Below, in pieces: positions 1,231 through 59,975 of a DNA stretch of 60,483 nucleotides (position 1 is the stretch's first letter; every line of letters starts with the position of its first letter). The DNA comes from a candidate division WWE3 bacterium (GTDB lineage Bacteria > Patescibacteriota > WWE3 > 2-01-FULL-39-13). The translations under genes and the position numbers were made by a program. The stretch is from the NCBI GenBank assembly GCA_027002375.1, contig JALWZX010000035.1, positions 1 through 60,483 on the forward strand. Direction: 5' to 3'. Below the pieces are notes generated by a model. It was not told the DNA's origin. It saw nothing but the letters and a program-made list of their open reading frames with translations, and searched no databases.

Positions 1231-1316
1231 ATGATTAACTCTATTTACGTTACGTATTAAGGTGCGTGTTTTGAGTTTTGCAATAAAGCAATAGAACCTA
1301 AACTGCCTAACAACAA

Positions 1317-1916: not shown

Positions 1917-1951
1917 TTAAGATATTATATGTATGCTATTTATACAGTGAT

Positions 1952-2634: not shown

Positions 2635-3201
2635 TTAAATCTGCGATTTATAAAGTTGCGTATGAGCCGCGTCAGAAACAGCTATAATATATGCAAAGCC
2701 TGTAATATCATCGTAGTCAATTATATTTAAAGATGTGTTATGTATAACAAAGTGAGTAAACACATCGGGATCACCATCTGCAAGTATTTTTGTTAATAAA
2801 ACGCGTATCCAATTTCCGTGAGTAAATACAATTACCTCTTGGTTCGGATGCCTTTTACAAACTTTTGTAAATGTTTTATAGACATGTTCTGTTGCTCTAG
2901 AAAAATCTTTTAAAGTTGCATGTTGTGTAATTGTGCCGGGTTGTGGCCAGTTTTCATTACCCACTTCGTTAAAGGCTGAGCTATACACAACTGTGTTATG
3001 ATGGTAGTCATTTACAATTTGACATGTATCAATAGCGCGCTTTACTCTACTGCAATACATTGCATCAAAGGTATTGTCTTTCAACCTTTTTGCTAACTGT
3101 AATGCTTGAATTCTCCCGAAATTGTTGAGCGGGTAATTTTCTAGTTGTATTCCTTGTTCGTCGTAAGCATCACCATGCCTAACAAAATATAATCTAGTCA
3201 T
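2635..3201 (-). CDS. Histidine phosphatase (phosphoglycerate-mutase-like) family protein
   Basis: N-terminal LYFVRHGDA (catalytic RHG) and a later FTHGNWIR motif. Adjacent to pgk. Confidence 0.75.
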   Translation of the reverse strand: MTRLYFVRHGDAYDEQGIQLENYPLNNFGRIQALQLAKRLKDNTFDAMYCSRVKRAIDTCQIVNDYHHNTVVYSSAFNEVGNENWPQPGTITQHATLKDFSRATEHVYKTFTKVCKRHPNQEVIVFTHGNWIRVLLTKILADGDPDVFTHFVIHNTSLNIIDYDDITGFAYIIAVSDAAHTQLYKSQI

Positions 3202-3222
3202 AATACAATGTTATCATATTTC

Positions 3223-17858: not shown

Positions 17859-17933
17859 TCCGCGGTAGCTCAATGGTGGAGCAGGAAGCTGTTAACTTCA
17901 AGGTTGCTGGTTCGAGTCCAGCCCGCGGAGCCA
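17859..17933 (+). tRNA. tRNA-Asn (anticodon GTT), CCA encoded
   Basis: Acceptor TCCGCGG/CCGCGGA, D-arm GCTC-AATGGTG-GAGC, anticodon loop CTGTTAA and T-arm GCTGG-TTCGAGT-CCAGC. Confidence 0.9.
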
Positions 17934-30320: not shown

Positions 30321-30347
30321 GGTTTGCGTTTTTTTAAAACGCAAACC
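30321..30347. terminator. Bidirectional terminator-like hairpin between convergent genes
   Basis: GGTTTGCGTTTT-TTT-AAAACGCAAACC (12-bp stem). It overlaps the last codons of the ATPase gene. Confidence 0.55.
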
Positions 30348-31473
30348 TCTTCAAGTTATCCTTATTTATAACTTCAAAATCAACATTTCCATATTCTAGC
30401 CATTTTTTAGGTGGTTTTACATTTTCACCAGCTTTATATTTAATTTCATACCCAAAAAGTTTCCCCTCTCTATCTTCGACCAAATCAATTTCACTACCGT
30501 CATAAGTTCGCCAAAAATATTGTGTTGCATAAATCCTATGATATTCTCTATATTTCATTCTTTCCGAAATGACAAAATTTTCCCAAAGATGACCAAGGTC
30601 TTGCCTTTTATCAAAAGTATTAAAATTATCAATAAGTGCGTTTCTTATACCAACATCATAAAAGAAGATTTTTTTGTTTTTTGAGATTTCCCTTCGTCTA
30701 TTCTTTGAAAAAGGTGATAGCCTAAATACCACAAAACTCTTTTCTAACAAATTTATATAACGCTCCACAGTTTTCATATCAATTCCAAGCAAGCTCGATA
30801 ATTCTGTATATGAAACTTCTGATCCAATTTGAAGTGCCAACGCTTTTAACAAATCATTTAATATCTGAGGATTTCTTACTTCTTGAAACTCAAGAATATC
30901 TTTAAAAAGGTAACTAGAAGTTAATTCTTGCAACAAACGTGTTTTTTCTTCTATTGGTTTTGTTTCTAATATCTCTGGATACATACCAAATCGTAAGAAA
31001 TTCTCAATCTGCTTCATGGTTTCCAGTTGACTGGTATGCTGCAGAAATTCCTCAATACTTATTGGGTATAAATGGTAAGTAAATTTTCTGCCAGTTAACG
31101 GTTCAGATGTTGATTGTAGTAAATTTATAGTTGAAGAACCTGTTACAACTATTTGTTTAGTCTTTTTATAATTATCTACTAGCAGTTTAATTGTTATTCC
31201 TATATTGGGAATTCTTTGTGCCTCATCAATAAAAACAATTTCGTTATCACCAACGATTTGATCTAACATATTAAAGTCTTTTTTTCGCAACAGATCTGCT
31301 TCAGTCGGATTATCCGCATTTATTTTAAGGATTTTTTTATCTTTAAAATTTGCTGATATTTGGTTAAATAATGTTGTTTTTCCAACTTGTCTCGCTCCTA
31401 CTATTATAATAGCTTTTCCTTTGAAAAAATCTTTTAATATAAGTGGTTCTAAGGTTCTTGTGATAATTTTCAT
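30334..31473 (-). CDS. AAA+ ATPase of the AAA_14/DUF4143 family
   Basis: Walker A GARQVGKTTL, Walker B VFIDEAQRIPN and a C-terminal DUF4143-like region (WENFVISE...). Confidence 0.75.
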   Translation of the reverse strand: MKIITRTLEPLILKDFFKGKAIIIVGARQVGKTTLFNQISANFKDKKILKINADNPTEADLLRKKDFNMLDQIVGDNEIVFIDEAQRIPNIGITIKLLVDNYKKTKQIVVTGSSTINLLQSTSEPLTGRKFTYHLYPISIEEFLQHTSQLETMKQIENFLRFGMYPEILETKPIEEKTRLLQELTSSYLFKDILEFQEVRNPQILNDLLKALALQIGSEVSYTELSSLLGIDMKTVERYINLLEKSFVVFRLSPFSKNRRREISKNKKIFFYDVGIRNALIDNFNTFDKRQDLGHLWENFVISERMKYREYHRIYATQYFWRTYDGSEIDLVEDREGKLFGYEIKYKAGENVKPPKKWLEYGNVDFEVINKDNLKRFAF

Positions 31474-44021: not shown

Positions 44022-47000
44022 TTAAAGTGCAATATTGTATTCCCTATCAAGTTTTAAGTTATCTCGTTTAGTAATGTGATTACCATCTATTGTGAATCCT
44101 GGTGTATTATTTCTATTACTTTTGCCAAAAGGAAACACCATTTGTAAATCCAGTGGGGTTGCTAGTGTGCCTGGTTGCTTTTGAACATATATGTTTAACA
44201 TATTGTTATCAAAATACCTTTCAGCCGATTCATATTCTAGTTTCAACACTACGGTTTTTCCTACAGGTACCAAAATGTCAGTTTCGTACAAAGCTTTGTT
44301 TTTATATGGTGAGACTATTACTTTACGTGTTATGTTTTTTTCAATTCCATCTTCAGTTAATTTGGCGGAATTTAAAAATGAATCTTTGGGTACAAGAATT
44401 CTTATATGATTAGTGTAATCGCCTAACGGCCAGGAATCATCTTCTGCGCTGTTGCTGTAAGTTAGTGTTAATTCTCGCTTGAATATATTAGCGCCACCGG
44501 GTTTATACCCCTTATATTCTATATTTCGATTTATGAAATTATCAACCTTATTATTTGAAATATTTGAGTCGATCACATATAAATAGTCATCTCTGCTAGA
44601 ATGTATTGTACCTGCCCAATTATTTTGATTTAGTACCTGTTGAATTTTACCGTTTTCAGAATACATGAGCATGTGCTTTGTTTCCAAATTGTTATACAAA
44701 GTTTGATATAATCTTTGCTTATAATTATCACCATATTTTTGCCAATTGGTTTTGTTTAATGCATTAGTTAATATTCTTGTGTACAGTTCACTATAAAAAT
44801 TAGCAGTTTCGTGGTCCTTAGACCTGTGTAACAATAATTGTTCGCTGAAATTGTCCATTGATATTGTTGTTTGATATGAAGGCATACTTACGCTTTCCGT
44901 TATCTGCAATAAATCCCCCAATGTATTCGTGTCTATTGTTATAACACCATCTATATCTTTATCATCAACATAACCATAAATTTTTGATATAACCTTAGCC
45001 GTGTTTTCATAGTCAAGATTCCACGTGGCATCGGTAAAGTTGAGTTGTTTGTATTTAAAGGCGTTTCTCAAAGGCAAAGGGGGTGCTTGTACTATCTCGC
45101 TATTTTTCAACGTATCGTTTATTTGATAAGGGTTTTCTATTTGCTTTAAATACAAATCGCCATTTGATATATTTAAGACTCCATACCCGTCTATGACACC
45201 ACCACCTGCACGTAATTCATTATTATCTACAACAACAATAAGGTATTTTGATGGGGAATTTATGCCCATTAATGCATTCCAAGCAGAACTTAAGCGATAT
45301 AATTTATTCAGTTTTTCTGAGTCTACCGAATCAACGTCGAATACTGTAAAAAAATATTTTGATAAAAATCCATTGTTTTGTATTGATCCAAGATCTTTTT
45401 TAATAAGGTTCAATTTTTCTATAGACTGCTCTAAATTCTCATCTTTGTTTATTATTGTTGTTGCACCAAGTACGTTACTATTATCGCTATTACTAGAAAG
45501 GTAAGACAGGTATTCACTATCAGATAAATTCTGTATTATCGAAGCCTTAGTTTTGGCGAGAGTTATTATAGTTTGAAGTGTTTTTTGATCTATTTTTGTA
45601 AACGGTTTCGTATAATTTACAGCTTTAGGAATGTAGTTTACCTTTTCAAAATATCCTAACGATTCAATGCTTTCCTCTTTTGCAGTGTTTAGGTCAAAAT
45701 CATTGAACGCAGTATAGGAGTTTTCTAGGTGTTGAAATCCTTTATAAGTATTCCATCCAACAATTATACTTGGTATTGCCAACAAGATAGCCAATATAAG
45801 TGATAAAAACATGATTATATGTTTCGCCTTAAATGTTGGTATGAATCTATCTATAAATGACTGATTCTCTGTATTTCCAGCAGAACTCATACTAGGGGTA
45901 TAATCATTATAGACATCAGCAGCATAATCGACATCGTTTATTTCTAGATTGTCATAAGTCTCATTATTCCACAAACTATTAGCTTGTGCGCTTGGTGTGT
46001 TGTCACGTTTATATTTGTCATTATCATCAAAACGGGGTTTGTGTGATTCACTTTCTACAGCTTGTGAGTATCGGTTTGGATGTGCAGATTCTCCACTTTT
46101 TGTGTTTGTAGCCTGATTAACCTTAGAGTATAGGTCTAAGTATGAATAATCTGTTTTGTTGTTATAATCACGCGTCGGTTGAATTGGTTTTGCTTCAATT
46201 GGTTGTACATGTGTTTTGTGGCCTCTTGTGCTAAGTATTTGTATGCCCCTAGTACCATTATGCGTACTATTATCCCTTAAATCAGAAGCTGAGTTAGAGT
46301 AAAGTTTTTCCGTTTGAGACCGAGTATTTTCTATATTGGTATCACGTGAAGTTTGATGACCGCCTACTAATCCCGCGCCCAAAGGGTATAGAATTTTATT
46401 ATCGGTATCGCGATGTTGTGCCTTTGCTCCAAGCTCGTCATTAGTTATCAACGAATCTTGCTGAATTCCTTTGCTTAGCCATATACTTGCATTTTTATCA
46501 TCATTAGGTTTTTGTACATTGCTCAATGTAATATCATTTAACTGTTTTTTTTCATAAAGTGACTGGTGTTTACCCGATTCGGTCTCATTTTTTGTGTTGT
46601 GTAATTGCTTTTGTAGCAACTTTTCGTACTTTCTTTTGTTATCCTCAAGCTGTTTTTGCAAAATCTTTTGCATTCTAAGTAGTTCTTCGGTCTTTTGCAG
46701 GGTATTCGCATCAGTATATTTATTGTTTTGCTTGTTTGTGGAATTCAGTAACGGAATTTTATATTCAGCTAATATTTCAGATATTCCTTCTTTTAAATTA
46801 ACCTTCGGTTGCCAATTTTTGGGATAAAAAACTGGCATTTCAGTAGAAAGAAGTATTTTAGAATAATCATTTTTTGTGTATGTTATTTTTGTATCTAAAG
46901 ATGTGAGCGATTTTATAAAGTGTACATATTCTATATAAGTAATTGGTAACTCACTAGTTAAAGAATATTTTGTTAACAGCCCATGTGACTTAGATTCCTG

Positions 47001-47525
47001 CACTATTTCTAACAACCCCTCAATAAAATCGCCGATATGTATTGGTCTTAATAGTAAGCCGTCATCATGTATGAGTATTTCTTGACCCTTAGTTAAACTA
47101 TATAAGGTTTCACGTAAAATGTCGTCTAACAAAACATCTTTTCCATATATGTTTCCAACTTCTATAAAAGATGCTGTGAGATTAGACAACTGCTTATATT
47201 TGTTTATTATTTCTATTGCTATATTAACGGAATGATCTTTACTTTGCGTACATTCCCAACGATACAGAAAGAGATATGGTGCCTTATGATCTCGTGTCAC
47301 TTCCAAAACCTTTGCAAGATCTGTTGTATTATGTTTTAACAGTCGAAGATCATCATCATCGTATATGATATTATTGAAATCTATTACTGCTACAACATTT
47401 TGAAAATGATGTAAATTTAAGTCGTTAGTGTCATTTAAAATAAATATCTCAAAGCCCAAATCTTTAGCTACTTTTGTAAAGTTTTCTGTTATTTCGTTTT
47501 GACCTGTTATGATAATTTCTTGCAT
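44022..47525 (-). CDS. Giant envelope protein: degenerate epimerase-like N-domain, disordered linker, one TM, and C-terminal DUF4012 domain
   Basis: YLIVVVDNNELRAGGGVIDGYGVL is the DUF4012 signature. TM is IIMFLSLILAILLAIPSIIVGW. The N-terminus IIITGQNEI shows a Rossmann-like layout without GxxGxxG. Confidence 0.7.
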   Translation of the reverse strand: MQEIIITGQNEITENFTKVAKDLGFEIFILNDTNDLNLHHFQNVVAVIDFNNIIYDDDDLRLLKHNTTDLAKVLEVTRDHKAPYLFLYRWECTQSKDHSVNIAIEIINKYKQLSNLTASFIEVGNIYGKDVLLDDILRETLYSLTKGQEILIHDDGLLLRPIHIGDFIEGLLEIVQESKSHGLLTKYSLTSELPITYIEYVHFIKSLTSLDTKITYTKNDYSKILLSTEMPVFYPKNWQPKVNLKEGISEILAEYKIPLLNSTNKQNNKYTDANTLQKTEELLRMQKILQKQLEDNKRKYEKLLQKQLHNTKNETESGKHQSLYEKKQLNDITLSNVQKPNDDKNASIWLSKGIQQDSLITNDELGAKAQHRDTDNKILYPLGAGLVGGHQTSRDTNIENTRSQTEKLYSNSASDLRDNSTHNGTRGIQILSTRGHKTHVQPIEAKPIQPTRDYNNKTDYSYLDLYSKVNQATNTKSGESAHPNRYSQAVESESHKPRFDDNDKYKRDNTPSAQANSLWNNETYDNLEINDVDYAADVYNDYTPSMSSAGNTENQSFIDRFIPTFKAKHIIMFLSLILAILLAIPSIIVGWNTYKGFQHLENSYTAFNDFDLNTAKEESIESLGYFEKVNYIPKAVNYTKPFTKIDQKTLQTIITLAKTKASIIQNLSDSEYLSYLSSNSDNSNVLGATTIINKDENLEQSIEKLNLIKKDLGSIQNNGFLSKYFFTVFDVDSVDSEKLNKLYRLSSAWNALMGINSPSKYLIVVVDNNELRAGGGVIDGYGVLNISNGDLYLKQIENPYQINDTLKNSEIVQAPPLPLRNAFKYKQLNFTDATWNLDYENTAKVISKIYGYVDDKDIDGVITIDTNTLGDLLQITESVSMPSYQTTISMDNFSEQLLLHRSKDHETANFYSELYTRILTNALNKTNWQKYGDNYKQRLYQTLYNNLETKHMLMYSENGKIQQVLNQNNWAGTIHSSRDDYLYVIDSNISNNKVDNFINRNIEYKGYKPGGANIFKRELTLTYSNSAEDDSWPLGDYTNHIRILVPKDSFLNSAKLTEDGIEKNITRKVIVSPYKNKALYETDILVPVGKTVVLKLEYESAERYFDNNMLNIYVQKQPGTLATPLDLQMVFPFGKSNRNNTPGFTIDGNHITKRDNLKLDREYNIAL

Positions 47526-48180: not shown

Positions 48181-48870
48181 ATGAAAGATAATATAGACAT
48201 TCTTCAAAAAGCAATAGTAGATACTCTAAGTAATAAAGATCTTAATTTAGACATAATTACACTTGATGAGTTAAAAGACATACTATTAATTCCACATGTA
48301 ATAGAAATAACTGATAATATATATTGGAACTCAATAAGCAAATTACAATCAGACAAAAAGATCTATTTAGACGATGGTTTTGTTTCGTTGAAACATGATG
48401 ATTTCACGGGTAGAAAGCAACAATACATTAAAAACAAAAAAACGCTTAACAAAGATATACAAATTATCAAAAAAGACTTTTCATTTGTATTCGATAAACT
48501 AGATGTGTTGTCTATATGTATAGATTTATTTTCATATCTGAATAATTTTGAACAGTCTTCTGGTACGAGAATTGTCAATCTCTATGTATTAGAAGATGAG
48601 AGGGCCAAACCTGCGTATTTCAAGGCATATAAGGCCTTTTTAAGGGTAAAAAGAAGAAGTGTTAAGTATAATATACGGAGTTCTAATAATGTAAAAGAGT
48701 TGATTACTGTAAAAAACAAAAATCTAAAATCAGCTTTTCATATATTGAATGTAAAACCAGTATTTAATAGAAATAGCTCGTATGAGAAATTTATATACAA
48801 TCAGATGTGGGTATTCGATATTTTTAAAAATTATCCGATGAGAAAGATAAGTATGGGTTATAAGATTTAA
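48181..48870 (+). CDS. Hypothetical protein
   Basis: 229-aa ORF with no recognised motif. Confidence 0.45.
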   Translation: MKDNIDILQKAIVDTLSNKDLNLDIITLDELKDILLIPHVIEITDNIYWNSISKLQSDKKIYLDDGFVSLKHDDFTGRKQQYIKNKKTLNKDIQIIKKDFSFVFDKLDVLSICIDLFSYLNNFEQSSGTRIVNLYVLEDERAKPAYFKAYKAFLRVKRRSVKYNIRSSNNVKELITVKNKNLKSAFHILNVKPVFNRNSSYEKFIYNQMWVFDIFKNYPMRKISMGYKI

Positions 48871-49036: not shown

Positions 49037-52000
49037 TTAGTCTACTTTCTTCACTAATAAAAGGCCATCATATTTACCGACAGTTACCTCACCGTTTACA
49101 TCTTCTCCAGTATTTCCCCTAGATGCTGTGCCTTTTATGCGTTTATACCCATCATTGATTTTTATCGTTTTTGTGGAATTCGTAGCGTTTACAATAGCCA
49201 TGCCATAATCAAAATACCTAACCCACGCATGAGAATCGACGCTTTGCCAGTCTTTGTCTTTTAGAAAGGAGCTCATTGTTGTGTTAGTAATGTTCCCATT
49301 TGAATCAACCATAAATGCTTTAGAGGTCGGTTTACCTAACCAATGTCTGTAGCCCATTATGTCGTTTTTAGTATTAACTGCGTTTCCTTCAGAGTCTACC
49401 GAGTATTCCTCTTTCCAAGTTGTTATGTGAAGTGCAGGTTGAAAAGACATGTATCCATTGTTTAACATTAACGATGTTGACAATAGTAGCCTGAAGAAGT
49501 CAACATTATTACTCTTTTCATCTCCGTATACAAGGTAAGAAATGTTTGGATCTTTTTGTTGTGCAACATAAATTAAAGTCATCATTTTACCAAAAGACCC
49601 TGGAGTATATCCATCTTCGCTAGTTACGTTGAATCCGTTGGGATGTGGCTCACTGTCGTATTCAAATATTAGTGTATCAACACCATGAAGATTTGACGTA
49701 AAGGATGTTTTTGTTGATGGTTCAGCAGAACCATTACCCATGATTATCCAATTAGGGTGATCTTGCTTGACTCTATAATTCATTTCTGTCATTTTTTGAG
49801 CGTAAGTTAAATTGGTTTCAGTTCTATTAGGTGTTCGTGGTGTAAAGTGCCACCAAACGTTTGAAGAATAATCACCTTCTATTCCATCCCAATTTGGATT
49901 CTTCATATTAGTTTTCACGTAATTTACAAACCAGTCAGTATATTTTGTTTTATTATCAAGAGTTGAAATAGCTGCAACATTTGTTACAGGTAGATCTACT
50001 GGATATTTCCATTCGACTTGAGTACCGTTTACCTTTAAATAATATCCATTCTTTTCAACCTCGTACGCTTGTCTGTTTCTAAATGTGTCAGGTCTCTCTG
50101 CATTCCCGAATGTAAACCACATCGGCATATAAGCAACTTGTAATTGACTTGGGTTTAAATTTTGTAGATATGTAACCAAATCTTTTCCGTCATATATTTC
50201 CCATCTAGCTTTCTGTGAGTCGTCGACTTCGCCCCCAAACTCTGGTTCAAGAATCACAACATCGAAAAATTCTAGTGAGTTTAAAACATAATCATATATA
50301 GCGTTGGGCCCTTGTGCCCCTAACATCGCAGCAAGTGTTTTTGGATACCCAATTCTGTTATGTGGATTTGTTGCTGGTGGCAGGTTTGGTGTACCATCAC
50401 CATTATTGTTTCCGTTATCGCCAGTGTTATCATCGTCATTGGCTGGTTGTGTATGCCCACTTCCATTGTTGTTTGTATTGTTAACATCAGCTACCTGACA
50501 AAGTTCTTGAAAGGAATCATCAGGTATTTTGAATCCATTTTCTTCAGGCAAATAAAGGGTTTTATAGCGTTCGCAAAATTTTCTAGCTTGTAATAAGTGG
50601 TCTGTATACTGTACGTACATATATCTTACCGGGTATCCAATCACCGTAAAATCCTTTAATATATCTGGATTTTGATCTAGTTCCAAATAGATTTTAGCTT
50701 TAGTAGGTTTTGGTTCGAATACTTCATCGTTAATTCCTGGTATATGCGATATAGCGTCATTTAAGTCCATGTCATGGGTTCTATATTGATTTAGATCAGC
50801 TTCAAATCCACCAACTGGCGCGACGTAAAAGTCAAATTTTGTGTTTTCGGAAAAACATTTCATAATTTTAGATATCACATTGCCCCCTTCAGGATAATCT
50901 TTTTCACTTTCACCTCCGTTTATAGCTTTCCATATACAACTTGCATTTGATTTTTGTACCTCAGATATACATTTACCCTTGGGACATCTTGGTTCTTGAA
51001 TTAGTTCTTTTGCTATTATTTCATTACACAAACTTTTGTCATCCACCCATGTTTCGCACTTATCACATTCTACTGGAGGAGGTGGTGGAGGTGGTGCAAT
51101 TTTACAATTTGAGTCTGTTACGTATCCTGCTCCATCGGGATTTTTAATAGATTTAATAGTGCATTTTATAGCTGGATAATTCTGTGGGCATGGCCCTGGA
51201 CATCCGTCTCTTGGCGACTTAGCTGAGCCATGAGTTATTTGAGCCGTAACGATTACAGGTGTAGACGGAGTTAATTTGGGTAATCCAGGAGAAGTCCCAT
51301 ATCCTGGTTTCAAATAATAGTTTCCTGCAGCTTGACAAGTGTCAAATCCATAACCACCTTGTGTTAGTATTCCACTATCTACACCGTTTATAGTGACACT
51401 AAAGTCTCCAATTGGACAACCAGTACATTTAAAGCTGACTTGGTAGCTTACATCAAAAGTGCCTGTCGCATTTGGTTCTTCGCTTGTAGTAAAAAGCCCA
51501 AGTGCAAGAGGATTTTCGGTACAATTGTTGAGTTCTTCCGGTTGATCTGTGGCTAGAGCCCTATTCGGTGTTGTTATGTTTTGTATGTTTACAATATCGT
51601 TATTATGATAAGTTTTATTTCCCATTGCATAATCGATTGAATCATCTAACCTAGCATAATCTCTCCCTTGTTTATTATAAATATTGCTTGGATTATAGAC
51701 TAAATCTGGTTTTGTAAATCTGTACGACGCGTGACAAAAGCCATTTACGCAAGGTGGTGCGACTAACGATCGTGTAGTATCCGCATCAGCTATTTCCAAA
51801 GTTTCAATGTCAGGTGGTGTAATGAACTCCATTTTTCCGTCAATATAAAACTTTATCCCTGTTGGTGCATTTTTTGCTTGCAGACATGCTACAAATCTTT
51901 TCGTTTCCGTAGTTGCCTTTGTGCCTAATTCATCACTACTCCCAGTAAAAACTCTTTCATACGTTTCGGACCATTTTTCACCAGTTTCAGAATCGGGAGC

Positions 52001-53500
52001 TGTATATTGTTTGGGCGAATTATACATCGCGGCTCTATATATTTTTGGAATAGCAGTTCTGGTAAAAGGTGGTGTCGCCAGTGGATATACGTCCATTTGT
52101 TTATCTATAAATGTATCAGATTCAGGATCTATATTTCCTATGTCAAAAGATCTAAAAACATCAAATCTATCATGGTCATAAGCACCACTTGCTTTTAATA
52201 CAAATTGACCAGATAATTTGGCTGATCCAGTTGTCCCTTCACCCGGGCCACTTATTTGGTTTCCGTTTCCGTCAAATTCAGCTTTTTCAGATGGTGAAAC
52301 TGCTTTTCCTTTCAGTTGCCATGGTCTATCACTGTTTATTCCTATTACAGAACCACGATAATAAACATGTTCAGCGTCTAAGGGTCCATCACATGAATTA
52401 GCCTTGTTTGTTGATCTGCAATAAGTTTTTCCGCTTGGCTCCACATAAGTTATACAGCATTCTATCTTTTTGTATTTTTTACTTTCTAATTTAGGTGGTA
52501 GTGTATTTTTTCTATAATTGTCTTCATCATAAGATTTGTCTGCAGGTGGGTTTGGGCCATATTGTTGTGCTAGATTAGAGAACAGTGCTGCAGTTTGGGT
52601 GTGCGCGTATATGTTCCATGGGTCGTTATGTACCACAGGATTGTATGAAAATACAGCAGCCATCTTTACTTGCCTTGACCACTTGTTATGCGCCAACTCA
52701 AAGAATGGTTTGAGTTGATGATCTCTGTACATTACGTATCGATCGTTTTGTCCGTTTTGGTCTTTTCCAACTACACCTGATTCGACGCCGTATATCGGCA
52801 TACCAGACAGCCCGACTTCATTAAGCAATGCTTCTGGATTGCCAGCACCAAGAAATGGATCAGGATTACATAAAGGAGTTGTGCAACTTTGTTCATCATC
52901 GTATAAGTTCAAAGTAACACCATCAAATTGTCTAAAATATGATGGTCCAAGTTCCATAAAATGCTGTTTAGCAATACCATTTGCATTTCCTCCATATGAT
53001 TTATTAACCATTGGTGATAATAGTATTACCTTTGTATGTCTAACGCCTAATTTGTTTAGTTCATCTACTAGCGTTGCTGTATAAGTTTTTACTTCATCAA
53101 TAGGAACTTTTTCTGTCCAAGGCTCATTTACTGGATAAAAATATACTTTTTTACCGCCAGTATCCATATTCGCCAATGTGTTTGCCCATGTTTTTGCTAA
53201 TCCAGGTGTTAGTTGTGTATTAGGGTAATGTCCTCTTATTATGAAGTTAATACTGGGATATTCTTTAAAGAATTTTGGTATAAGGGTTTTACAATCACCA
53301 GGCTGTGCCATTACTACTATCCATCCCCCAGGACCCACAATTCCAGCAGCGCTATCGACTTCTTCAAAGTGATCTCCGATATTTATACCGACACGGTTAG
53401 GTATACTCCCATCCACAGCATATATAGGTTCCGTACTTATAATAAGACTAAAGAATGAAAATAATATTGATGTAATGACTATGCTATATAGCTTTTTCAT
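49037..53500 (-). CDS. Giant secreted multidomain protein with glycoside-hydrolase-like TIM-barrel motifs, Cys-rich middle region and poly-Pro linker
   Basis: Signal peptide ending IYA/VDG. FYPVNEPW and IYGVESGV, about 115 aa apart, resemble the clan GH-A acid/base and nucleophile motifs. There is a PPPPPPP run and an N/G/D-rich linker. The C-terminal VAYMPMWFTFGNAERPD is reminiscent of GH114-like folds. Confidence 0.55.
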   Translation of the reverse strand: MKKLYSIVITSILFSFFSLIISTEPIYAVDGSIPNRVGINIGDHFEEVDSAAGIVGPGGWIVVMAQPGDCKTLIPKFFKEYPSINFIIRGHYPNTQLTPGLAKTWANTLANMDTGGKKVYFYPVNEPWTEKVPIDEVKTYTATLVDELNKLGVRHTKVILLSPMVNKSYGGNANGIAKQHFMELGPSYFRQFDGVTLNLYDDEQSCTTPLCNPDPFLGAGNPEALLNEVGLSGMPIYGVESGVVGKDQNGQNDRYVMYRDHQLKPFFELAHNKWSRQVKMAAVFSYNPVVHNDPWNIYAHTQTAALFSNLAQQYGPNPPADKSYDEDNYRKNTLPPKLESKKYKKIECCITYVEPSGKTYCRSTNKANSCDGPLDAEHVYYRGSVIGINSDRPWQLKGKAVSPSEKAEFDGNGNQISGPGEGTTGSAKLSGQFVLKASGAYDHDRFDVFRSFDIGNIDPESDTFIDKQMDVYPLATPPFTRTAIPKIYRAAMYNSPKQYTAPDSETGEKWSETYERVFTGSSDELGTKATTETKRFVACLQAKNAPTGIKFYIDGKMEFITPPDIETLEIADADTTRSLVAPPCVNGFCHASYRFTKPDLVYNPSNIYNKQGRDYARLDDSIDYAMGNKTYHNNDIVNIQNITTPNRALATDQPEELNNCTENPLALGLFTTSEEPNATGTFDVSYQVSFKCTGCPIGDFSVTINGVDSGILTQGGYGFDTCQAAGNYYLKPGYGTSPGLPKLTPSTPVIVTAQITHGSAKSPRDGCPGPCPQNYPAIKCTIKSIKNPDGAGYVTDSNCKIAPPPPPPPVECDKCETWVDDKSLCNEIIAKELIQEPRCPKGKCISEVQKSNASCIWKAINGGESEKDYPEGGNVISKIMKCFSENTKFDFYVAPVGGFEADLNQYRTHDMDLNDAISHIPGINDEVFEPKPTKAKIYLELDQNPDILKDFTVIGYPVRYMYVQYTDHLLQARKFCERYKTLYLPEENGFKIPDDSFQELCQVADVNNTNNNGSGHTQPANDDDNTGDNGNNNGDGTPNLPPATNPHNRIGYPKTLAAMLGAQGPNAIYDYVLNSLEFFDVVILEPEFGGEVDDSQKARWEIYDGKDLVTYLQNLNPSQLQVAYMPMWFTFGNAERPDTFRNRQAYEVEKNGYYLKVNGTQVEWKYPVDLPVTNVAAISTLDNKTKYTDWFVNYVKTNMKNPNWDGIEGDYSSNVWWHFTPRTPNRTETNLTYAQKMTEMNYRVKQDHPNWIIMGNGSAEPSTKTSFTSNLHGVDTLIFEYDSEPHPNGFNVTSEDGYTPGSFGKMMTLIYVAQQKDPNISYLVYGDEKSNNVDFFRLLLSTSLMLNNGYMSFQPALHITTWKEEYSVDSEGNAVNTKNDIMGYRHWLGKPTSKAFMVDSNGNITNTTMSSFLKDKDWQSVDSHAWVRYFDYGMAIVNATNSTKTIKINDGYKRIKGTASRGNTGEDVNGEVTVGKYDGLLLVKKVD

Positions 53501-53505
53501 GATAA

Positions 53506-54540
53506 TTATTTTTGCTTTTCGCTGAATGTTTTTATTGCATTTTCAACGACATAGCCTGTCCCAGTATTATGTTCTTTCGTAGTTGTCTTACCTGTTAGAA
53601 CATAAACTGGTATTATCATACCATTATTAGCATAATACGAAACCGTTCCTTTTTCTAGATACGTTGTTAATATGTCTTCTGCTGGGGGAAACGTACCGTT
53701 CATTAATTTCCCCTCACCATTTTTAATGTCGTCAACCACAGTCTGTGTATCTTTTAGATAAAAAGTCTTTTTAATATCTTTATCTATCGTACCAACCGGT
53801 TGAACTATTACCTTAGAAATATCTCCATTTGATGTAATAAAAACCCTTATTGAGTTAGGTGTAATATTACCTTTCTTGTCAATGATTGGAATTCCTTCAT
53901 AATCTGCATTGTAAATATATTCTATCGTATTTGCGTCACCTATGTTATTAACTTCTACACTCTCAAACGGGACATCTTTGTAATATACATATGAGTCAAA
54001 TTTGTACATGTTTGTTGGAATTTCTAGTTTGCGTGGAATCTCTAGGGTTTTGTCTAAATAATTTTGGTATGAATCTGTTGCAGAGAAATTTTCTTCAGAA
54101 ACTATATATTTATTAGGGTAATACAAAATATAATTATCTGACACGTAAAAAGTCAATGTAATATCCTGATTTGCTGTATCTATCATTATATTGTTCTTAT
54201 CACGCGTTTCGCTTGTTGGCTTTGTATTGAAGATTTTAGTCATTCTATCAATATATGAATCTGACATACAGAATTTCTCGTAACCATATCCGTTAAGCTC
54301 TTTTAAATTAGTATCTAATTTAAAAGTTGCATATGTTTTTATTATCCCAGTATCCACACCAGCCAATTCTACTGAATTATCAAATATATCATACGATATA
54401 ATAGGCTTAGCTGTTGGATAATCAGGATTCCGTTTTTGATTATTTGATTGTGTAAAAATAATATATACAACGATTAATATCGCAATAATTATTAATATTA
54501 TTAAATATTTATTTTTTTTAATGCTATTTTTGTTAATCAT
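53506..54540 (-). CDS. Membrane-anchored hypothetical extracytoplasmic protein
   Basis: N-terminal TM YLIILIIIAILIVVYIIF. Its ATG overlaps the upstream stop (TAATG), and its stop is 5 nt from the next ATG. Confidence 0.55.
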   Translation of the reverse strand: MINKNSIKKNKYLIILIIIAILIVVYIIFTQSNNQKRNPDYPTAKPIISYDIFDNSVELAGVDTGIIKTYATFKLDTNLKELNGYGYEKFCMSDSYIDRMTKIFNTKPTSETRDKNNIMIDTANQDITLTFYVSDNYILYYPNKYIVSEENFSATDSYQNYLDKTLEIPRKLEIPTNMYKFDSYVYYKDVPFESVEVNNIGDANTIEYIYNADYEGIPIIDKKGNITPNSIRVFITSNGDISKVIVQPVGTIDKDIKKTFYLKDTQTVVDDIKNGEGKLMNGTFPPAEDILTTYLEKGTVSYYANNGMIIPVYVLTGKTTTKEHNTGTGYVVENAIKTFSEKQK

Positions 54541-57500
54541 TATGGACCTGTATAATTACATTGACTAACTTCAAAACACCCTTCGATATCGTGATCGACT
54601 GGTATATAACTGCCAGGATACATTGAATTGTTTAAATTTACCATTCTAAGTTTTTCGCCTGGTATACACTCAACAAGTGGTTTTTTGAACTCGTAATGAA
54701 GGTGTACTCCCCTAGAACCACCTGTGTTTCCAACATATCCGAGTACCGCCCCTTTGTTAACTTGTACAGGTGTCCCGTATTTACCGTCTGGTTTCAGATT
54801 TGAAGATATATCTTTCATATGCGCATAAAGCGTTTTTACGCCTGGATTTGTATTAGAAGTTACCACAACGAAATTTCCATAGTCATTACGTTGAGCAGAT
54901 ACAGCTGTACCAGCATGAGTGGCGAATATAGGTACCCCACTATTGGCGGCAAGGTCAACAGCTTCTTCTTTGTATGTTGTATGAGCCTGATGACCGTCTC
55001 TATAAGGGCCTTGAGTCATCACAAAATGGTCGTGTAATGGCCATCCTGACGGGCATTTCATGCAGCCCCCGTTATTAATGTTTGTTGCAACAGAATCAAA
55101 CGCAGATCTTGTAGAATCTTCTTTTGCTGCAACTTCTACCGAGTTTGAGTATGTGGAATTCACAGAATTAATGTCAAGAGAACTTGGTAATGTAAGCGTT
55201 AACTCACTTTCAATACTTTTTTCAGGCTCAATTGTTCTGTTTAAAAATTCTAGCATTAAATCTCTTGTTGGTTTATCTAATGTGCCTGTAAACCCATTGG
55301 GATTATTGTCATCATAGGTTTGGGTTGTTCCAGCGCCACAGTCTGGTATATAAGATAAAGTATCTTTAAATTTTCCAATTGTAATTGGTTGTTGATCTAC
55401 ATCACCTGATTCCCCAGTTATATTTGTCACTTTAATTTTATATTTTATTGTTCTATGAGATATATCTGGTGTTGCTGTTTTATCAACCTCAATATATTTT
55501 GATTCTGCGGTGTCTGTATATCCACCCCCCCCAGTATTCGTATAAGAGGTTAACATTGAAGGTATTATTACTAGAGGAATTATAAGTATACATCCACAAC
55601 AACCCAAAAGTGGATATAAAACAACCTTTATAAATACTTTAGCAGTACCTTTGAACGATTCTTCTGCGGCATGTAAGGCTGTGTCAAGTCCTTTATGCAA
55701 ATTTTTTACAAATTGCCAAGCAACATCACCCAGTGACGTAATTAACCACGAAATTCCGCCTGACACTATACCAGCAGCCCCACTTAGTAAAAAGCCTATG
55801 CTTTTTGCTAATGCAGCCCCGCCGAATTTAGACAAAAATAATACGGCAGCTTTTGTGCCAAATTTACTCTCAAAAAATTCTATAAAAGCTTTACTTTTAA
55901 GCCAATCACCACTGTTAACAAGCCATTTTATGCCTGGCCATTGTGCAACTGCACCAGAAATTCCTAATTCTGATGTCATGCCGAATTTTTCTAGCACGCT
56001 TCGAAGTGGGGCTGATGTTTTGATCAGACCGAGAAGAAGTCTACTGTTACCGCTATATTGCCCAAGTATAATTTGTTTGTAAAAGAAGGATCTTACATAA
56101 TTAGCATACCTATTATACATATTAAGGTATCCTGCATATTTACCAGCCAATTGTGAAACCTTTCCGGTACTGTAAAAATTGTTTAAAATGTTCCAAATTT
56201 CATCATTAGGTACGTTCCCGTTTATAACCATACCCTCTAAAAGGTGCTTGCCATGATTATCGAACAAATTAAGATTTTGCAAAAATAACTGAAAATTTTT
56301 ATATTCTCCATCTACGATTTCATCTAACTTTAATGTTTTCACCAAATTGGCGAGTCCCGCATCCGTGATTTTTTGCCCACTTATGATCAGTTCTGTTTGA
56401 TCTTTTAAATCATGTAAAAATTCACTTAATAAATCTGGATTAGCGAATAAGTCTTTCGGTTTATACTTAGAATATTTAAGACTTTTCTCTAGATCAATAC
56501 CAACGTCACCGTTTCCCCATGATGATTTAACAACGTCAAATGCAGAGTAGTTAGTAGAAAACAGTTCCTTTTTCTTTTTCGGATCGTATATTGTAAAGCC
56601 GAATAACCCTAGTGCGTCTTCTGAATTTATCCAGGATTGGTAAGCAAATGTTTGTGTCCCCACATCTCTAGACCATTCTATCGCAACATTATTTTGCATT
56701 CCTAATCCCATAAATTTTGAGCCAGATTGGAAATTTAGTCCAGTGTATTTACCAATTGCATTTTTAGCCTCGTTTATTTTCAGAGTCTTAATAGCAGTCT
56801 GTATTATCGGATCCATTATATGTGCCACATAATAATTTCCCGGTACAAATGGGATTTCAAGAAATGGTAAGGTTCCAGCAAATTTACTTGTTATTAGTAA
56901 AATACTTACGTAATCCTCATTTTCAATAGCCATTAATAGATTTTTTGCGGTACCGGCGAAATATAAATTGTGAGTTGCCATTAAAGCTTTTTGTGCAGAA
57001 GTCATTCTATCTACAGCTAAACTAGCAGCTTCCTTAGCGTTTTGTCGCAGCATTTTTATTTCACTTGGTAATAATTTGCTGTTTGGTGGTCTTCCTTGCT
57101 TTCTTAGATATTCTTTATGCAACAAATCAAACGCGGTTGCTTCCTGTTGTTGATATATACGTTGCATTATTTTTTTAGAATTTTCTTGTATGGCAAATTG
57201 TGCTTCTAGTATAGCTTTTGTCTGCTCATTTTCCCTTTTAAAAACTTTGAGTTGATCTTTTTCAGCCAAGCCCGTTGGAATTGGAACACTTATATCCATA
57301 CCTAGAACTTTTCTATTTAATACATGTGATTTCTCGGTATATTTTGGTGACCAAAGCTTAAAATGCTGGTCTATATTATTTATATAATATTCAGCCCTTA
57401 CTATTTGGCTTAGCGTTTCAATCTCTTCATTAGACCAAAGCGTAATTGGAATCCCTAGCGTGGTTTCCAACCTATCAGCTAGTTTACCGTCATTTGCTAA

Positions 57501-58376
57501 GAACTTATCAATGTCGCCACCATAGGGTTTTAATGCATCTATCAACGTTCCTGTACTAGTCTGCTTCCCCGTAACAGTTGGTAATACCTTATCTAAGTCT
57601 ATGCCCAATTCTGTTAACGTTATTCTATTAAAATCTGTTATGCTTTGATTTCTAAATAGCTCTCTCGCCGATTGTGTATCTGAATATGCAGCCAGACCCT
57701 CCATGGAAGAAGACATATGTGCATATGGTCTATACTGTTTTGCCAATATGTGCTTATCGCCATAGAGTTCACTTTCTTCTAGTAGCTTTCTATCGTCCGT
57801 TTGTCTATCTTTATCTTTTATAGCGAATTTATATGTGCCACGTAATAACATTTTAGAAACTTTTTTCTTTTTTCCGGTTTTGGGATCGATAGTCTCTTCG
57901 ATGTATGGGGACATGTCATAGAAGCCACCGCCACTTGTTTTGTTAAGTATGCTAATTGGTCCGGATGGTGGACTAGACAAGTCTCGACCAGTAAGCCCTT
58001 TGGTTTTTCCTTTTGTCAAGTTAGCTATTTCTGTTGATCTTCTTTGAGAACTGATCTCTGAAGCATCAAGTATGTCCTGTACAGTACTTTTTCCTATCGC
58101 TGTAAATGTTTTTAATGGGTTAGTTAATACATCTTTTATGTTAACTACTGTAGTTACCCCTTTAAGTTGAAACAACTCTTCGTCGCTCATCGCAAGAAGA
58201 TTCACTACGTCAGCATCAGACATTATCGATTTTGTTTGGCTTGATGTAAATTTCCAAGCCTGTAAGTTCTTTTTCTGCCCGTTGAAATAGAAAGCGATTG
58301 TTTTCTTTGGATATTCTATGGGAAGATCCGCAATGTCTTCTATCCAACCAACAAATGTTAAATCTCCTTTTGGCAT
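54540..58376 (-). CDS. Giant polytopic protein with C-terminal M23 (LytM-type) metallopeptidase domain
   Basis: C-terminus reads HTTYKEEAVD...PIFATHAGTA...TLYAHM...GYVGNTGGSRGVHLHYEF. Gly-rich hydrophobic segments lie around aa 830-930. The ~830 aa N-terminal region is unassigned. Confidence 0.7.
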   Translation of the reverse strand: MPKGDLTFVGWIEDIADLPIEYPKKTIAFYFNGQKKNLQAWKFTSSQTKSIMSDADVVNLLAMSDEELFQLKGVTTVVNIKDVLTNPLKTFTAIGKSTVQDILDASEISSQRRSTEIANLTKGKTKGLTGRDLSSPPSGPISILNKTSGGGFYDMSPYIEETIDPKTGKKKKVSKMLLRGTYKFAIKDKDRQTDDRKLLEESELYGDKHILAKQYRPYAHMSSSMEGLAAYSDTQSARELFRNQSITDFNRITLTELGIDLDKVLPTVTGKQTSTGTLIDALKPYGGDIDKFLANDGKLADRLETTLGIPITLWSNEEIETLSQIVRAEYYINNIDQHFKLWSPKYTEKSHVLNRKVLGMDISVPIPTGLAEKDQLKVFKRENEQTKAILEAQFAIQENSKKIMQRIYQQQEATAFDLLHKEYLRKQGRPPNSKLLPSEIKMLRQNAKEAASLAVDRMTSAQKALMATHNLYFAGTAKNLLMAIENEDYVSILLITSKFAGTLPFLEIPFVPGNYYVAHIMDPIIQTAIKTLKINEAKNAIGKYTGLNFQSGSKFMGLGMQNNVAIEWSRDVGTQTFAYQSWINSEDALGLFGFTIYDPKKKKELFSTNYSAFDVVKSSWGNGDVGIDLEKSLKYSKYKPKDLFANPDLLSEFLHDLKDQTELIISGQKITDAGLANLVKTLKLDEIVDGEYKNFQLFLQNLNLFDNHGKHLLEGMVINGNVPNDEIWNILNNFYSTGKVSQLAGKYAGYLNMYNRYANYVRSFFYKQIILGQYSGNSRLLLGLIKTSAPLRSVLEKFGMTSELGISGAVAQWPGIKWLVNSGDWLKSKAFIEFFESKFGTKAAVLFLSKFGGAALAKSIGFLLSGAAGIVSGGISWLITSLGDVAWQFVKNLHKGLDTALHAAEESFKGTAKVFIKVVLYPLLGCCGCILIIPLVIIPSMLTSYTNTGGGGYTDTAESKYIEVDKTATPDISHRTIKYKIKVTNITGESGDVDQQPITIGKFKDTLSYIPDCGAGTTQTYDDNNPNGFTGTLDKPTRDLMLEFLNRTIEPEKSIESELTLTLPSSLDINSVNSTYSNSVEVAAKEDSTRSAFDSVATNINNGGCMKCPSGWPLHDHFVMTQGPYRDGHQAHTTYKEEAVDLAANSGVPIFATHAGTAVSAQRNDYGNFVVVTSNTNPGVKTLYAHMKDISSNLKPDGKYGTPVQVNKGAVLGYVGNTGGSRGVHLHYEFKKPLVECIPGEKLRMVNLNNSMYPGSYIPVDHDIEGCFEVSQCNYTGP

Positions 58377-58580
58377 AATTAGATTTTATCAGAAAACAAG
58401 CTTCAAACAAGAAAGTATAGATTAATTATTTAAATGTTGAAATTTAGCCAACAATATAGTATTGAAAGAATAACGACATAATGTAAAATTATGTTGTATG
58501 AGTATATTTATTAATATACCTAATTTGAAAAATATCTTTGTGAAGAATTCAAAGTTTTTTTTCATAATTATAATCTAACC

Positions 58581-59975
58581 ATGCCTAACATGAAGAGATC
58601 CGTAAAGATAGTTGTTATTAGTTTTGTTATTATAACAGTTGTATTATCTAGTGCGTTCAAGACATATTCATACGCTAGTAATCAAGACGCAACTTATGAA
58701 TATGATAACAACCCAAGTTTAACAAGCCCCGATGCGGTAAACGCGGCAGGTATCCCGGATTCTGTAAAGGCTATAGGACTAAATGCCTTGGGAACCTTTG
58801 CGAAATTAGCTGTATGTCATGGCGATGATTGTGAAGTAAATAGTGAGGGGTATACGCAATATCTGCTAGTTCAAATGCCAGCTAACGGTGTTGCGATGGT
58901 TGTATGTGATCCGGATCGAAATAGATTCGATGACGTTACCATACATGGTGCAGATACGCCATGTACCGATCCGAATACGTTTGCTGCTAATGCTGAAGAA
59001 ATGCTAAGTAAAGGTAAACTACCAGGTGGTGGCGCAGCTTTGTTGGCTAGTGCATACAACTACGCTGGTACAGATATGTCTATCCCGACTGATTTAGCCT
59101 TATATTTTAAAGATACAATGTCTGACACAATATTTGGAACACCAGCATATGCAGCTGATCCTTTAGACAATACAATGTTCAAAGGAGTTGTCTTAGGCAT
59201 GTGGAAGATAACGCGCAATTTGGCATTAGCTTTACTTGGTGTGATTACAGCTGCCGCTGCATTAATGATTATTTTTAGGAAAAAAATATCTGCCCAAGCT
59301 GTTGTAACTGTTTATAATATTCTACCTAGAATCCCGATTGCTATCCTTTTTATATTATTGTCTTATCCAATTGCCGCACTTTTAATCTCATTAGTTCAAC
59401 CACTAATGGGGCTTGCTATTAATCTTGGTCTAGAAATTATGAAAGGAAGCACAACCACTGAAAATGCTGTATACTATTATATTAGTATGGCCATTAATAG
59501 CATATTTGCGATTGTTGTCGCTATGGGTGCTTTAAATGTTGGAGCAATTGTTATAATTGTGGTGTTTGTTGTTATTATTGTAGTTATACTCGCAGTCATT
59601 TTGATTCATATAATTAGTGCTTATGTTGATATGATTATTAATACTGTTTTTGCGCCTATTATTGGTGTTATGAGTATATTACCTGGTCAAGAACGTGGAA
59701 TAGTGAATTTAGTTTTTAGAATGATTGTAGACATACTAACAGTTCCACTAATTATATTTGTCATACTTATGGGGTTAGCAGTTATTATTATTCCTGTTGA
59801 AGAGTTCGGTATGACGTTAGCACCACCAATGGCATTTTTTGCAATGTTTTGGATTTTTATACTAAAGACTATTATGGGGTTAATGATTATGTGGCAAGCT
59901 ACTAAAGTTAAGAAAATGTTAAAGGGAGCTTTTAGTGTTACAGGATTGTTTGAAACTGGTCAACAAAAGAGGTAA
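58581..59975 (+). CDS. Polytopic membrane protein, VirB6/TrbL-like topology (signal peptide, ~200 aa exposed domain, then ~6 TM)
   Basis: Call rests on topology and on adjacency to a pilin-like gene and a cell-wall hydrolase. No strict motif. Confidence 0.35.
   Translation: MPNMKRSVKIVVISFVIITVVLSSAFKTYSYASNQDATYEYDNNPSLTSPDAVNAAGIPDSVKAIGLNALGTFAKLAVCHGDDCEVNSEGYTQYLLVQMPANGVAMVVCDPDRNRFDDVTIHGADTPCTDPNTFAANAEEMLSKGKLPGGGAALLASAYNYAGTDMSIPTDLALYFKDTMSDTIFGTPAYAADPLDNTMFKGVVLGMWKITRNLALALLGVITAAAALMIIFRKKISAQAVVTVYNILPRIPIAILFILLSYPIAALLISLVQPLMGLAINLGLEIMKGSTTTENAVYYYISMAINSIFAIVVAMGALNVGAIVIIVVFVVIIVVILAVILIHIISAYVDMIINTVFAPIIGVMSILPGQERGIVNLVFRMIVDILTVPLIIFVILMGLAVIIIPVEEFGMTLAPPMAFFAMFWIFILKTIMGLMIMWQATKVKKMLKGAFSVTGLFETGQQKR

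Follow-up and report, generated by a model that had tools for sequence, protein, structure and literature searches.

Architecture of the A-B-C operon

We analysed a three-gene operon within a 60,483-nucleotide stretch of DNA (the window) from contig JALWZX010000035.1 of a candidate division WWE3 bacterium (assembly GCA_027002375.1). An earlier note, made from the letters of the window, had proposed that this operon encodes an apparatus for opening cell walls. On re-reading, three open reading frames, here called A, B and C, were identified on the minus strand where that note had placed them, packed head to tail:

54540-58376, minus strand: gene A, 1278 amino acids, predicted large membrane-anchored M23 endopeptidase
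53506-54540, minus strand: gene B, 344 amino acids, bitopic protein
49037-53500, minus strand: gene C, 1487 amino acids, modular protein with a Sec-type signal

At the A/B junction (...TCCA TAATG ATT...) a single base, at position 54540, serves as the last of the A stop codon and the first of the B ATG, and B is followed by C after a gap of 5 nucleotides (TAA-TTATC-ATG); both junctions agree with the previous description. The three genes form one tightly packed unit, and proteins like C, as well as the polytopic protein encoded divergently from A, travel with arrays of VirB2-type pilin genes across the candidate phyla radiation (CPR).

The window has a G+C content of about 32%, in the range of a low-GC bacterial chromosome, and its genes include those for Ddl, a Mur ligase, DnaG, RpoD, LeuRS, L25, a DUF4012 protein and three tRNAs. 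The presence of Ddl and the Mur ligase indicates that the organism makes peptidoglycan. The G+C fraction of positions 50001-58000, which cover the operon, is 0.35-0.38, compared with 0.29-0.35 in the rest of the window. The nearest relatives are metagenome-assembled genomes (MAGs) labelled Candidatus Saccharibacteria, WWE3 or Levybacteria (CPR/Patescibacteria). MAGs with closely related loci (L009/P0048, P0050 and L006; related loci are referred to by L numbers) carry a mixture of WWE3, Levybacteria and Saccharibacteria labels, and the more distant CPR locus L018 sits in a MAG labelled Pseudomonadales. Such clashing labels for related loci indicate that the public taxonomy is inconsistent or that these genomes are mis-binned.

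Protein A combines an orphan helical domain with an M23 peptidase

We divided protein A into four regions, all encoded on the minus strand:

55857-58376: residues 1-840, mostly alpha-helical and predicted to be cytoplasmic, with no signal peptide and no cysteine
55557-55844: residues 845-940, two weak glycine-rich hydrophobic helices and one strong transmembrane helix, from hydropathy and charge counts
55077-55499: residues 960-1100, extracytoplasmic beta-sandwich (Ig/PapD-like), from the structural model and Foldseek
54681-54968: residues 1137-1232, M23 (LytM-type) metallopeptidase domain, from Pfam and PDB matches

The M23 endopeptidase that had been proposed for the C-terminus was readily recovered. 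Residues 1137-1232 matched Pfam family PF01551 with an E-value of 9.4e-17 (61.4 bits, against a cut-off of 28.7), and 21 PDB chains of solved M23 structures matched the C-terminus at E<=1, including 3slu_A (E=3.8e-8). The motifs SH..EAxD, YAH[LM] and HLHYEF are conserved across the alignment of the A family; the H-to-D spacing in the first of these is longer than in the usual HxxxD. Membership of the A C-terminus in peptidase family M23 (LytM/lysostaphin type), with intact catalytic motifs, is well supported by sequence, and the domain is predicted to cleave peptidoglycan.

The description of A as polytopic did not hold. The protein has one strong transmembrane helix (residues 920-938) and two weak glycine-rich ones (approximately 845-890), preceded by some 840 residues without a signal peptide; the model shows helices at 842-943. 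The charges flanking the transmembrane segments fit an N-in/C-out topology, and six cysteines lie in the outer part of the protein. AlphaFold2 modelling of residues 1-1100, with an alignment of 26 family members, gave a mostly helical structure with a predicted local distance difference test score (pLDDT) of 72 and a predicted template-modelling score (pTM) of 0.62. The beta-sandwich at residues 960-1100 was modelled confidently (pLDDT 84-93), and its local Foldseek matches were Ig-like and PapD-like folds with a probability of 1.0. This sandwich alone resembles known folds; the model as a whole returned nothing at E<=1e-3 from the PDB or from the viral models of BFVD. The 840-residue N-terminal domain has no structural or sequence relative outside its own family in the PDB, BFVD, or the plasmid and phage genomes searched with tblastn. 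It lacks a typical ATPase Walker A motif, the one exception being a chance-like ANLTKGKT.

A word-based homologue search found almost nothing for A or B, and an exhaustive HMMER search of 1.84 billion representative sequences was needed for A. This search identified 31 relatives, nearly all of 1260-1360 residues. Peptidase_M23 is present in 21 of 23 family members and one member also matches DUF11. The A orthologue of L012 is split into two open reading frames, 7-2661 (884 residues) and 2761-3909 (382 residues), reflecting either a frameshift or pseudogene or an assembly error.

Protein B may resemble the YycI and YycH accessory proteins

B contains a single N-terminal transmembrane helix (residues 12-30), in line with the N-terminal anchor previously assigned to it. 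It matched no family in Pfam or NCBIfam, even at E<=10 in Pfam; a profile search against PDB sequences returned nothing, and the word-based search found no relative. Orthologues of B were therefore taken from the related loci, and their sequences were then found by exact match; they are 22-33% identical to B. The AlphaFold2 model of B (pLDDT 65, pTM 0.53), clearly the best of five, shows repeated helix-plus-sheet units in the ectodomain. The only significant Foldseek matches to this model in the PDB were YycI (2o3o_G, E=5.5e-5) and YycH (9a5d_B, E=2.6e-4), both with a probability of 1.0, with TM-scores of only 0.27-0.37 from a model at pLDDT 65.

The WalK kinase, which controls autolysins, has as partners YycH and YycI, extracytoplasmic proteins anchored at their N-termini (PMC7355866). 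Like these WalRK proteins of Bacillota, B has one N-terminal transmembrane helix followed, in the model, by repeated extracytoplasmic alpha+beta domains and appears in a setting suggestive of wall-hydrolase control. Unlike them, it gives no Pfam YycI or YycH sequence match, its TM-scores to 2o3o and 9a5d are low, and no histidine kinase was found in the locus, which leaves no linkage of the WalK type. A VirB8-like (NTF2-like) identity was also considered and rejected, since TcpC, TraM and PrgL were absent from the top 50 Foldseek matches in the PDB. At the moderate confidence of the model, the label "YycI-like accessory protein" would suit B better than "VirB8".

Protein C is a modular secreted protein with a putative glycosidase domain

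Protein C begins with a hydrophobic segment resembling a Sec-type signal, as had been predicted, and comprises three further regions, again on the minus strand:

52511-53413: residues 30-330, conserved domain with NEP and ESG motifs, putatively GH-A-like
50501-52402: residues 367-1000, cysteine-rich central core, with a PPPPPPP linker at residue 803
49040-50380: residues 1041-1487, C-terminal domain with no detectable relative

In the clan GH-A pattern, a (beta/alpha)8 barrel carries the acid/base glutamate in an NEP motif and the nucleophile glutamate about 100-120 residues further on. In the N-terminal domain of C, N125 of NEP and E240 of ESG are invariant and lie about 115 residues apart, and E126 of NEP is replaced by aspartate in two of the 13 sequences. 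This region has no significant family match, its match to GH5 being weak (E=0.24). When aligned by hhalign with the Glyco_hydro_cc-type N-terminus of the L012 orthologue, both motifs fell into register at a probability of only 5%. On these motifs and weak matches, we regard residues 30-330 as a putative clan GH-A-like glycosidase domain.

Two glycosidase-like regions had been suggested for C. The N-terminal one retains its motifs; the second, corresponding to residues 1041-1487, had no match in Pfam, NCBIfam, the PDB or any relative and no similarity to glycosidases. We also rejected the possibility that this region is a diverged copy of the C N-domain or of the C-terminus of P0006, to which it shows no similarity. 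It is missing in the closest orthologue and replaced by other modules in others, so that the central core (approximately residues 367-1000) is the sole part conserved in all orthologues of the window's clade. The N- and C-terminal modules of these orthologues are exchanged between lineages and include a GH-A-like domain, Glyco_hydro_cc, no module at all, the 447-residue domain of C, and SLT-like or SLT_3 domains. C itself gave no SLT, CHAP or NlpC match in Pfam or NCBIfam, and SLT_3 occurs only in the relatives P0007 and P0010. For the C-termini of the L007, L011 and L012 orthologues, we did not accept an SLT identity: their resemblance is at the level of a motif (E...S...ATGPxQIT), a PDB profile search was negative, and hhalign to P0008 gave a probability of 8.5%.

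The divergent neighbours are a polytopic protein and VirB2-type pilins

Upstream of A, the following features were identified:

58377-58580: intergenic region of 204 nucleotides between A and the polytopic-protein and pilin genes
58581-59975, plus strand: polytopic protein, 464 amino acids, with a signal or transmembrane segment, an ectodomain of about 190 residues and then at least six transmembrane helices
60206-60483, plus strand: VirB2-type pilin-like gene, 123 amino acids, cut by the window end

A polytopic gene and a pilin-like gene had been reported in these positions and both are present. The 464-residue protein is a conjugation-type "VirB6-like" component in the sense that it is polytopic, with at least five transmembrane helices, and adjoins VirB2-type pilins. 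The VirB6 assignment found no further backing from family models: the protein gave no Pfam TrbL match and no Pfam, NCBIfam or PDB match to TrbL, VirB6 or PrgH. The longest copy of the same contig, L002, ends 2 kb past the window and adds pilin-like genes of 154, 385 and 88 residues, the second of which is an ectodomain-pilin fusion. The L007 orthologue of this fusion exceeds the PF18895 threshold (5e-7, 30.1 bits, against a cut-off of 26.6). Fusions of this kind occupy one position in every lineage, with a cysteine-containing ectodomain of 300-450 residues and unknown fold followed by a C-terminal PF18895 domain:

L002, 3857-5014 (just past the window end): pilin-fusion gene
L007, 6945-8042: pilin-fusion gene
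L011, 6540-8075: pilin-fusion gene
L018, 3420-4571: pilin-fusion gene

The 204-nucleotide intergenic region presumably holds promoters for both directions. A promoter and terminator scan did no better on it than on shuffled sequence, and the region is not conserved in relatives. A 17-nucleotide sequence, TAWAATCTAAYYATGCC, is common to the start of A (58372-58388, minus strand) and the start of the polytopic-protein gene (58569-58585, plus strand), spanning both start codons; both proteins begin Met-Pro. The pattern occurs in the window at these two sites only, where 0.23 occurrences are expected by chance, and two occurrences were reached in two of 100 shuffles. It is not conserved in the relative L004 and may be due to chance or represent a recent feature.

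The locus is conserved across six CPR lineages

Six CPR lineages (the window, L004/L010, L007, L009/L011/L015, L012 and L021), at 22-45% identity, share the arrangement in which A, B and C diverge from the genes for the polytopic protein and PF18895 pilins. On one strand, the shared order is a PMT_2 glycosyltransferase, pilins, a coiled-coil SpoIID-type lytic transglycosylase, the ectodomain-pilin fusion, a small pilin-like gene and the polytopic protein. A, B and C lie on the opposite strand, and beyond them are a gene for a protein of 204-247 residues (an HSP20 gene in L021), RNase H, the DUF4012 gene and L25. The A/B/C junctions remain overlapping or nearly abutting in relatives at 25-45% identity, with 4-nucleotide overlaps in L011 and L012. 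A, B, C and the polytopic protein share 33-45% identity with the nearest relative, against 78-82% for RNase H and L25 beside them, a difference in keeping with surface proteins that evolve fast.

The SpoIID protein, of 575-620 residues with two long coiled-coil segments preceding the SpoIID domain, was found beside T4SS (type IV secretion system) pilin arrays in every CPR lineage examined:

L007, 4993-6828: coiled-coil SpoIID protein
L010, 2374-4230: coiled-coil SpoIID protein
L011, 4491-6326: coiled-coil SpoIID protein
L018, 1263-2990: coiled-coil SpoIID protein
L021, 213-2075: coiled-coil SpoIID protein

C-like proteins accompany pilin arrays in other CPR lineages

Outside the window's clade, proteins with the N-domain of C have T4SS_pilin neighbours in five of six contexts. 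In L018, L019, L020 and L023, they are encoded directly after arrays of 6-10 PF18895 T4SS_pilin genes and share 35-47% identity with this domain; the sixth context, L024, is one short contig, in which the C-like protein is found without pilins. SpoIID is also encoded in these loci, and homologues of the polytopic protein lie next to the pilin arrays in L018, L019 and L022 (hhalign probability 98.4-98.8). The flanking genes differ, being mevalonate-pathway genes and an ECF sigma factor in L019, L020 and L023 and dnaN in L022.

L022 holds, within 6 kb of a VirB4 (P-loop_TraG/DUF87/AAA_10), the C-like gene, the polytopic homologue, a pilin gene and a fusion of GH5_mannosidase with a pilin. The position of this cluster beside dnaN matches the origin-proximal position of Patescibacterial T4SSs (PMC12102498). 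The fusion (545-1957, plus strand) is a protein of 470 residues, with a GH5_mannosidase domain and a C-terminal T4SS_pilin domain, encoded next to the C-like gene.

L018 encodes an M23 protein of 1291 residues with the same layout as A. We tried to relate the two and did not accept homology, as the match covers 66 columns at the junction between the transmembrane segment and the beta-sandwich, at a probability of 39%. Below threshold, NCBIfam matched the L019 polytopic homologue to the Mycoplasma integrative and conjugative element (ICE) protein Mbov_0396 and the L007 pilin fusion to the adjacent Mbov_0395. The Mycoplasma pair (Mbov_0395, pilin-like, and Mbov_0396, transmembrane; also MMCAP2_0565-0566) is likewise an adjacent small pilin-like and polytopic pair from conjugation in a monoderm. 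These matches reach 18-22 bits against curated cut-offs of 40-90, and come from the L019 and L007 homologues, not from the window proteins.

Comparison with characterised wall-opening systems

The VirB1-type hydrolases of Gram-positive conjugative T4SSs include PrgK (pCF10), TraG (pIP501), CwlT (ICEBs1), TrsG and CD419. A-B-C resembles these in being membrane-associated, in combining glycan- and peptide-cutting modules, as predicted here, and in a possible role in perforating a thick wall locally to make way for a channel of the conjugation type. VirB1-type enzymes usually carry both activities on one N-terminally anchored protein of 300-900 residues, with CHAP or NlpC/P60 as the peptide cutter; in A-B-C the predicted activities are split over two very large proteins, the 840-residue N-domain of A has no counterpart, and the YycI-like B is added. 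By the formal tests for a VirB1 of the MPF-FATA type, A-B-C does not qualify: there is no nearby virB4 and no single anchored protein with SLT or lysozyme plus CHAP or NlpC/P60 modules, A carrying M23 alone.

A closer parallel is found in the Saccharibacterium Southlakia epibionticum ML1, whose T4SS cluster (SEML1_0006-0019) comprises a pilin array, VirB6, VirB4 and PrgI (Wang et al. 2023, PMC10633639). Downstream of virB4, this cluster encodes a 1113-residue protein with a C-terminal DD-peptidase fold and a lysozyme/CHAP protein, both essential (PMC10633639, Tables S1 and S2). Both loci are chromosomal clusters of monoderm CPR epibionts, with a PF18895 VirB2-type pilin array beside a polytopic VirB6-type protein. 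SEML1_0007, of more than 1100 residues and recognisable only by its C-terminal wall metallopeptidase fold, is likened to A by layout, and SEML1_0006, a multi-domain glycan hydrolase, parallels C; genes of the S. epibionticum cluster are essential for its epibiotic growth. The two differ in that the S. epibionticum hydrolases lie directly downstream of virB4, together with PrgI and an NTF2-like VirB8, none of which occurs near A-B-C. The peptidase there has a Hedgehog/DD-peptidase fold rather than M23, the glycan hydrolase is lysozyme plus CHAP rather than GH-A-like, and the polytopic protein has 1088 residues rather than 464.

A 2025 survey found VirB1 homologues to be rare near virB4 in Patescibacteria, noted that some carry Peptidase_M23 and suggested that other glycosidases may serve instead (PMC12102498). 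Patescibacterial T4SSs with pilin arrays and adjacent essential peptidase and lysozyme genes are already published (PMC10633639, PMC12102498), and to call A-B-C an undescribed system was therefore too strong. The parts without a described counterpart are the 840-residue N-domain of A and the YycI-like B.

A candidate wall-hydrolase module of a type IV secretion or pilus apparatus

With moderate confidence, we favour the interpretation that A-B-C is a lineage-specific wall-hydrolase module of the Patescibacterial type IV secretion/pilus apparatus, which is conjugation-derived and MPF-FATA-like. It is probably a variant of the known wall-opening arm of T4SSs and pili and not an unknown machine. 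The linkage of C-like and polytopic proteins to pilin arrays, and to VirB4 in L022, argues at the level of gene order for a role in type IV secretion. The core of the original idea, an envelope-acting operon that pairs a peptide cleaver with a probable glycan cleaver and is tied to a T4SS-like pilus, survives in this form; VirB4 and VirD4, named in the note for checking, were absent nearby in the window's clade.

The enzyme activities and expression of the operon are predictions from sequence and model, and on these we propose the following mechanism. The 840-residue helical domain of A would lie in the cytoplasm, and the Ig-like and M23 domains would face outwards, placing M23 where it would cut the peptide cross-links of peptidoglycan. 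B would dock on A through its membrane helix or its ectodomain and may position or restrain the hydrolases, a role comparable to that of YycH and YycI towards WalK, the regulator of wall hydrolases. C would be exported by Sec and cut glycan strands with its GH-A-like N-domain; the C-terminal module of some C orthologues appears, by motif, to be lytic-transglycosylase-like. Together with the SpoIID-type lytic transglycosylase encoded beyond the pilin genes, A and C could breach the wall of the epibiont itself locally, and perhaps also that of the host where the two cells touch, to let a pilus or channel through. A-B-C would in this way fill the role of the "missing VirB1" of many Patescibacteria.

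Epibiotic growth depends on the Patescibacterial T4SS, yet most genomes are reported to lack its VirB1 component or to have none that is recognised (PMC12102498). Large secreted proteins with a GH-A-like N-domain, encoded directly downstream of pilin arrays in several CPR lineages, are candidates for this component; a second candidate, in one clade, is the operon in which such a protein is joined by a giant M23 peptidase tethered to the membrane and by a YycI-like partner. If the interpretation is correct, these proteins are targets for understanding how the pilus or channel of an ultra-small epibiont traverses the cell's own wall and perhaps enters that of the host, and the swapped catalytic modules of C could mark host specificity.

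Several observations weigh against an assignment to type IV secretion. Across the window's clade, a distance of 10 kb around the locus contains no VirB4, VirD4, PrgI or TrsD (for VirB4-like proteins, in L004, L007, L009-L011 and L021), and none of the four occurs in the remaining 58 kb of the window. Synteny with T4SS genes, raised in the earlier note, is accordingly partial: pilins and the polytopic protein adjoin the operon, whereas VirB4 shares a cluster with a C-like gene only in L022, so that the link to a working T4SS rests on the pilins, the polytopic protein and the other lineages. Within the clade, synteny extends to the entire neighbourhood, housekeeping genes included, and such synteny alone is therefore no proof of functional coupling. 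A and B are confined to one clade, and the profile match of the L018 M23 protein to A is weak. The polytopic protein has no significant match to VirB6 or TrbL models, the glycosidase assignment of C stands on motifs and weak matches, and the model of B is moderate (one of five models at pLDDT 65) with low TM-scores.

The strongest alternative is a housekeeping hydrolase complex for wall growth or division, unrelated to secretion, which we regard as unlikely. Here A would be a membrane-tethered M23 enzyme under cytoplasmic control, similar to FtsEX-EnvC/PcsB or DipM-type systems; B would regulate in the manner of YycI, and C and SpoIID would cleave glycan strands in general, as happens in the SpoIID/M/P engulfment machine. 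The best NCBIfam matches to the M23 domain of A, although below threshold, are division/elongation enzymes of the DipM, MepM and ShyA types, and the fold matches of B are to regulators of autolysin expression (PMC7355866). The locus lies amid L25, LeuRS and RNase H with clade-wide synteny, SpoIID is conserved nearby, and no T4SS ATPase lies close to it. Three observations point the other way. The C N-domain family and the polytopic protein co-localise with pilin arrays where the flanks differ and, in L022, also with VirB4; close relatives have exchanged the catalytic modules of C, a pattern not expected if the enzyme acted only on the invariant wall of its own cell; and A, B and C evolve about twice as fast as their housekeeping neighbours.

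It is also conceivable, although improbable in our estimate, that C and the ectodomain of A digest the host wall at the attachment site for Sec-dependent attack or nutrient harvest, with no T4SS channel and with the pilins serving adhesion only. C has its own Sec signal peptide and need not be a T4SS substrate, and the exchange of modules among its orthologues is the pattern expected for adaptation to different host walls; the GH5_mannosidase-pilin fusion of L022 suggests that enzymes can be displayed on a pilus. A, on the other hand, is membrane-anchored with a short ectodomain, which limits its reach to its own wall unless the two envelopes are tightly apposed. Nothing separates the host wall from the cell's own wall as the substrate, and this possibility overlaps with the secretion-linked interpretation rather than excluding it.

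A more speculative extension, to which we give an equally low weight, is that the SpoIID-like enzyme, pilins, polytopic protein, A, B and C form a self-contained apparatus that works without VirB4, in which the N-domain of A, lacking any structural relative, would act as a platform on the cytoplasmic side, gating both extracellular wall cleavage and pilus passage, and the modules of C would set which host walls are opened. In that case, C would be a host-range determinant of CPR epibionts.

A phage-tail remnant, in which C would be a tail depolymerase and A would resemble a tape measure (some siphovirus tape measures likewise combine a long helical stretch and hydrophobic segments with M23 at the C-terminus), is very improbable and effectively refuted: the PHROG matches to tape-measure/endolysin families (phrog_10030, 3.6e-13; phrog_6700, 2.4e-13) are limited to the M23 domain while B, C and the neighbours match nothing, tblastn against 50,697 phage genomes gave no match and IMG/VR none, Foldseek against viral structures gave TM-scores <=0.09 for long alignments, the chromosomal position is stable across lineages, and capsid, terminase and tail genes, named in the earlier note as the signs of a phage module, occur neither in the window nor in any of more than 12 related loci. 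We likewise rejected a plasmid or ICE origin of A-B-C, as tblastn against 72,556 plasmids returned no match for A, C or the polytopic protein.

Other features of the window

Two genes that flank the operon keep their position in most relatives. One encodes the DUF4012 protein of 1167 residues (44022-47525, minus strand) and the other an uncharacterised protein of 229 residues (48181-48870, plus strand), in whose place L021 carries the HSP20 gene. Elsewhere in the window, a Fic/DOC-family protein with a Fic_N domain (10437-11567, minus strand) is encoded between tRNA-Ser and the Mur ligase and Ddl genes. A large serine recombinase gene (17898-19409, minus strand) overlaps at its 3' end with tRNA-Asn (17859-17933, plus strand). 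Beyond the recombinase lie open reading frames without a family match, a Schlafen/AlbA_2 protein (28084-29517) and an AAA_14/DUF4143 ATPase (30334-31473). The tRNA-Asn region, from 17859 to 19409 and possibly to about 31500, looks like an integrated element at a tRNA.

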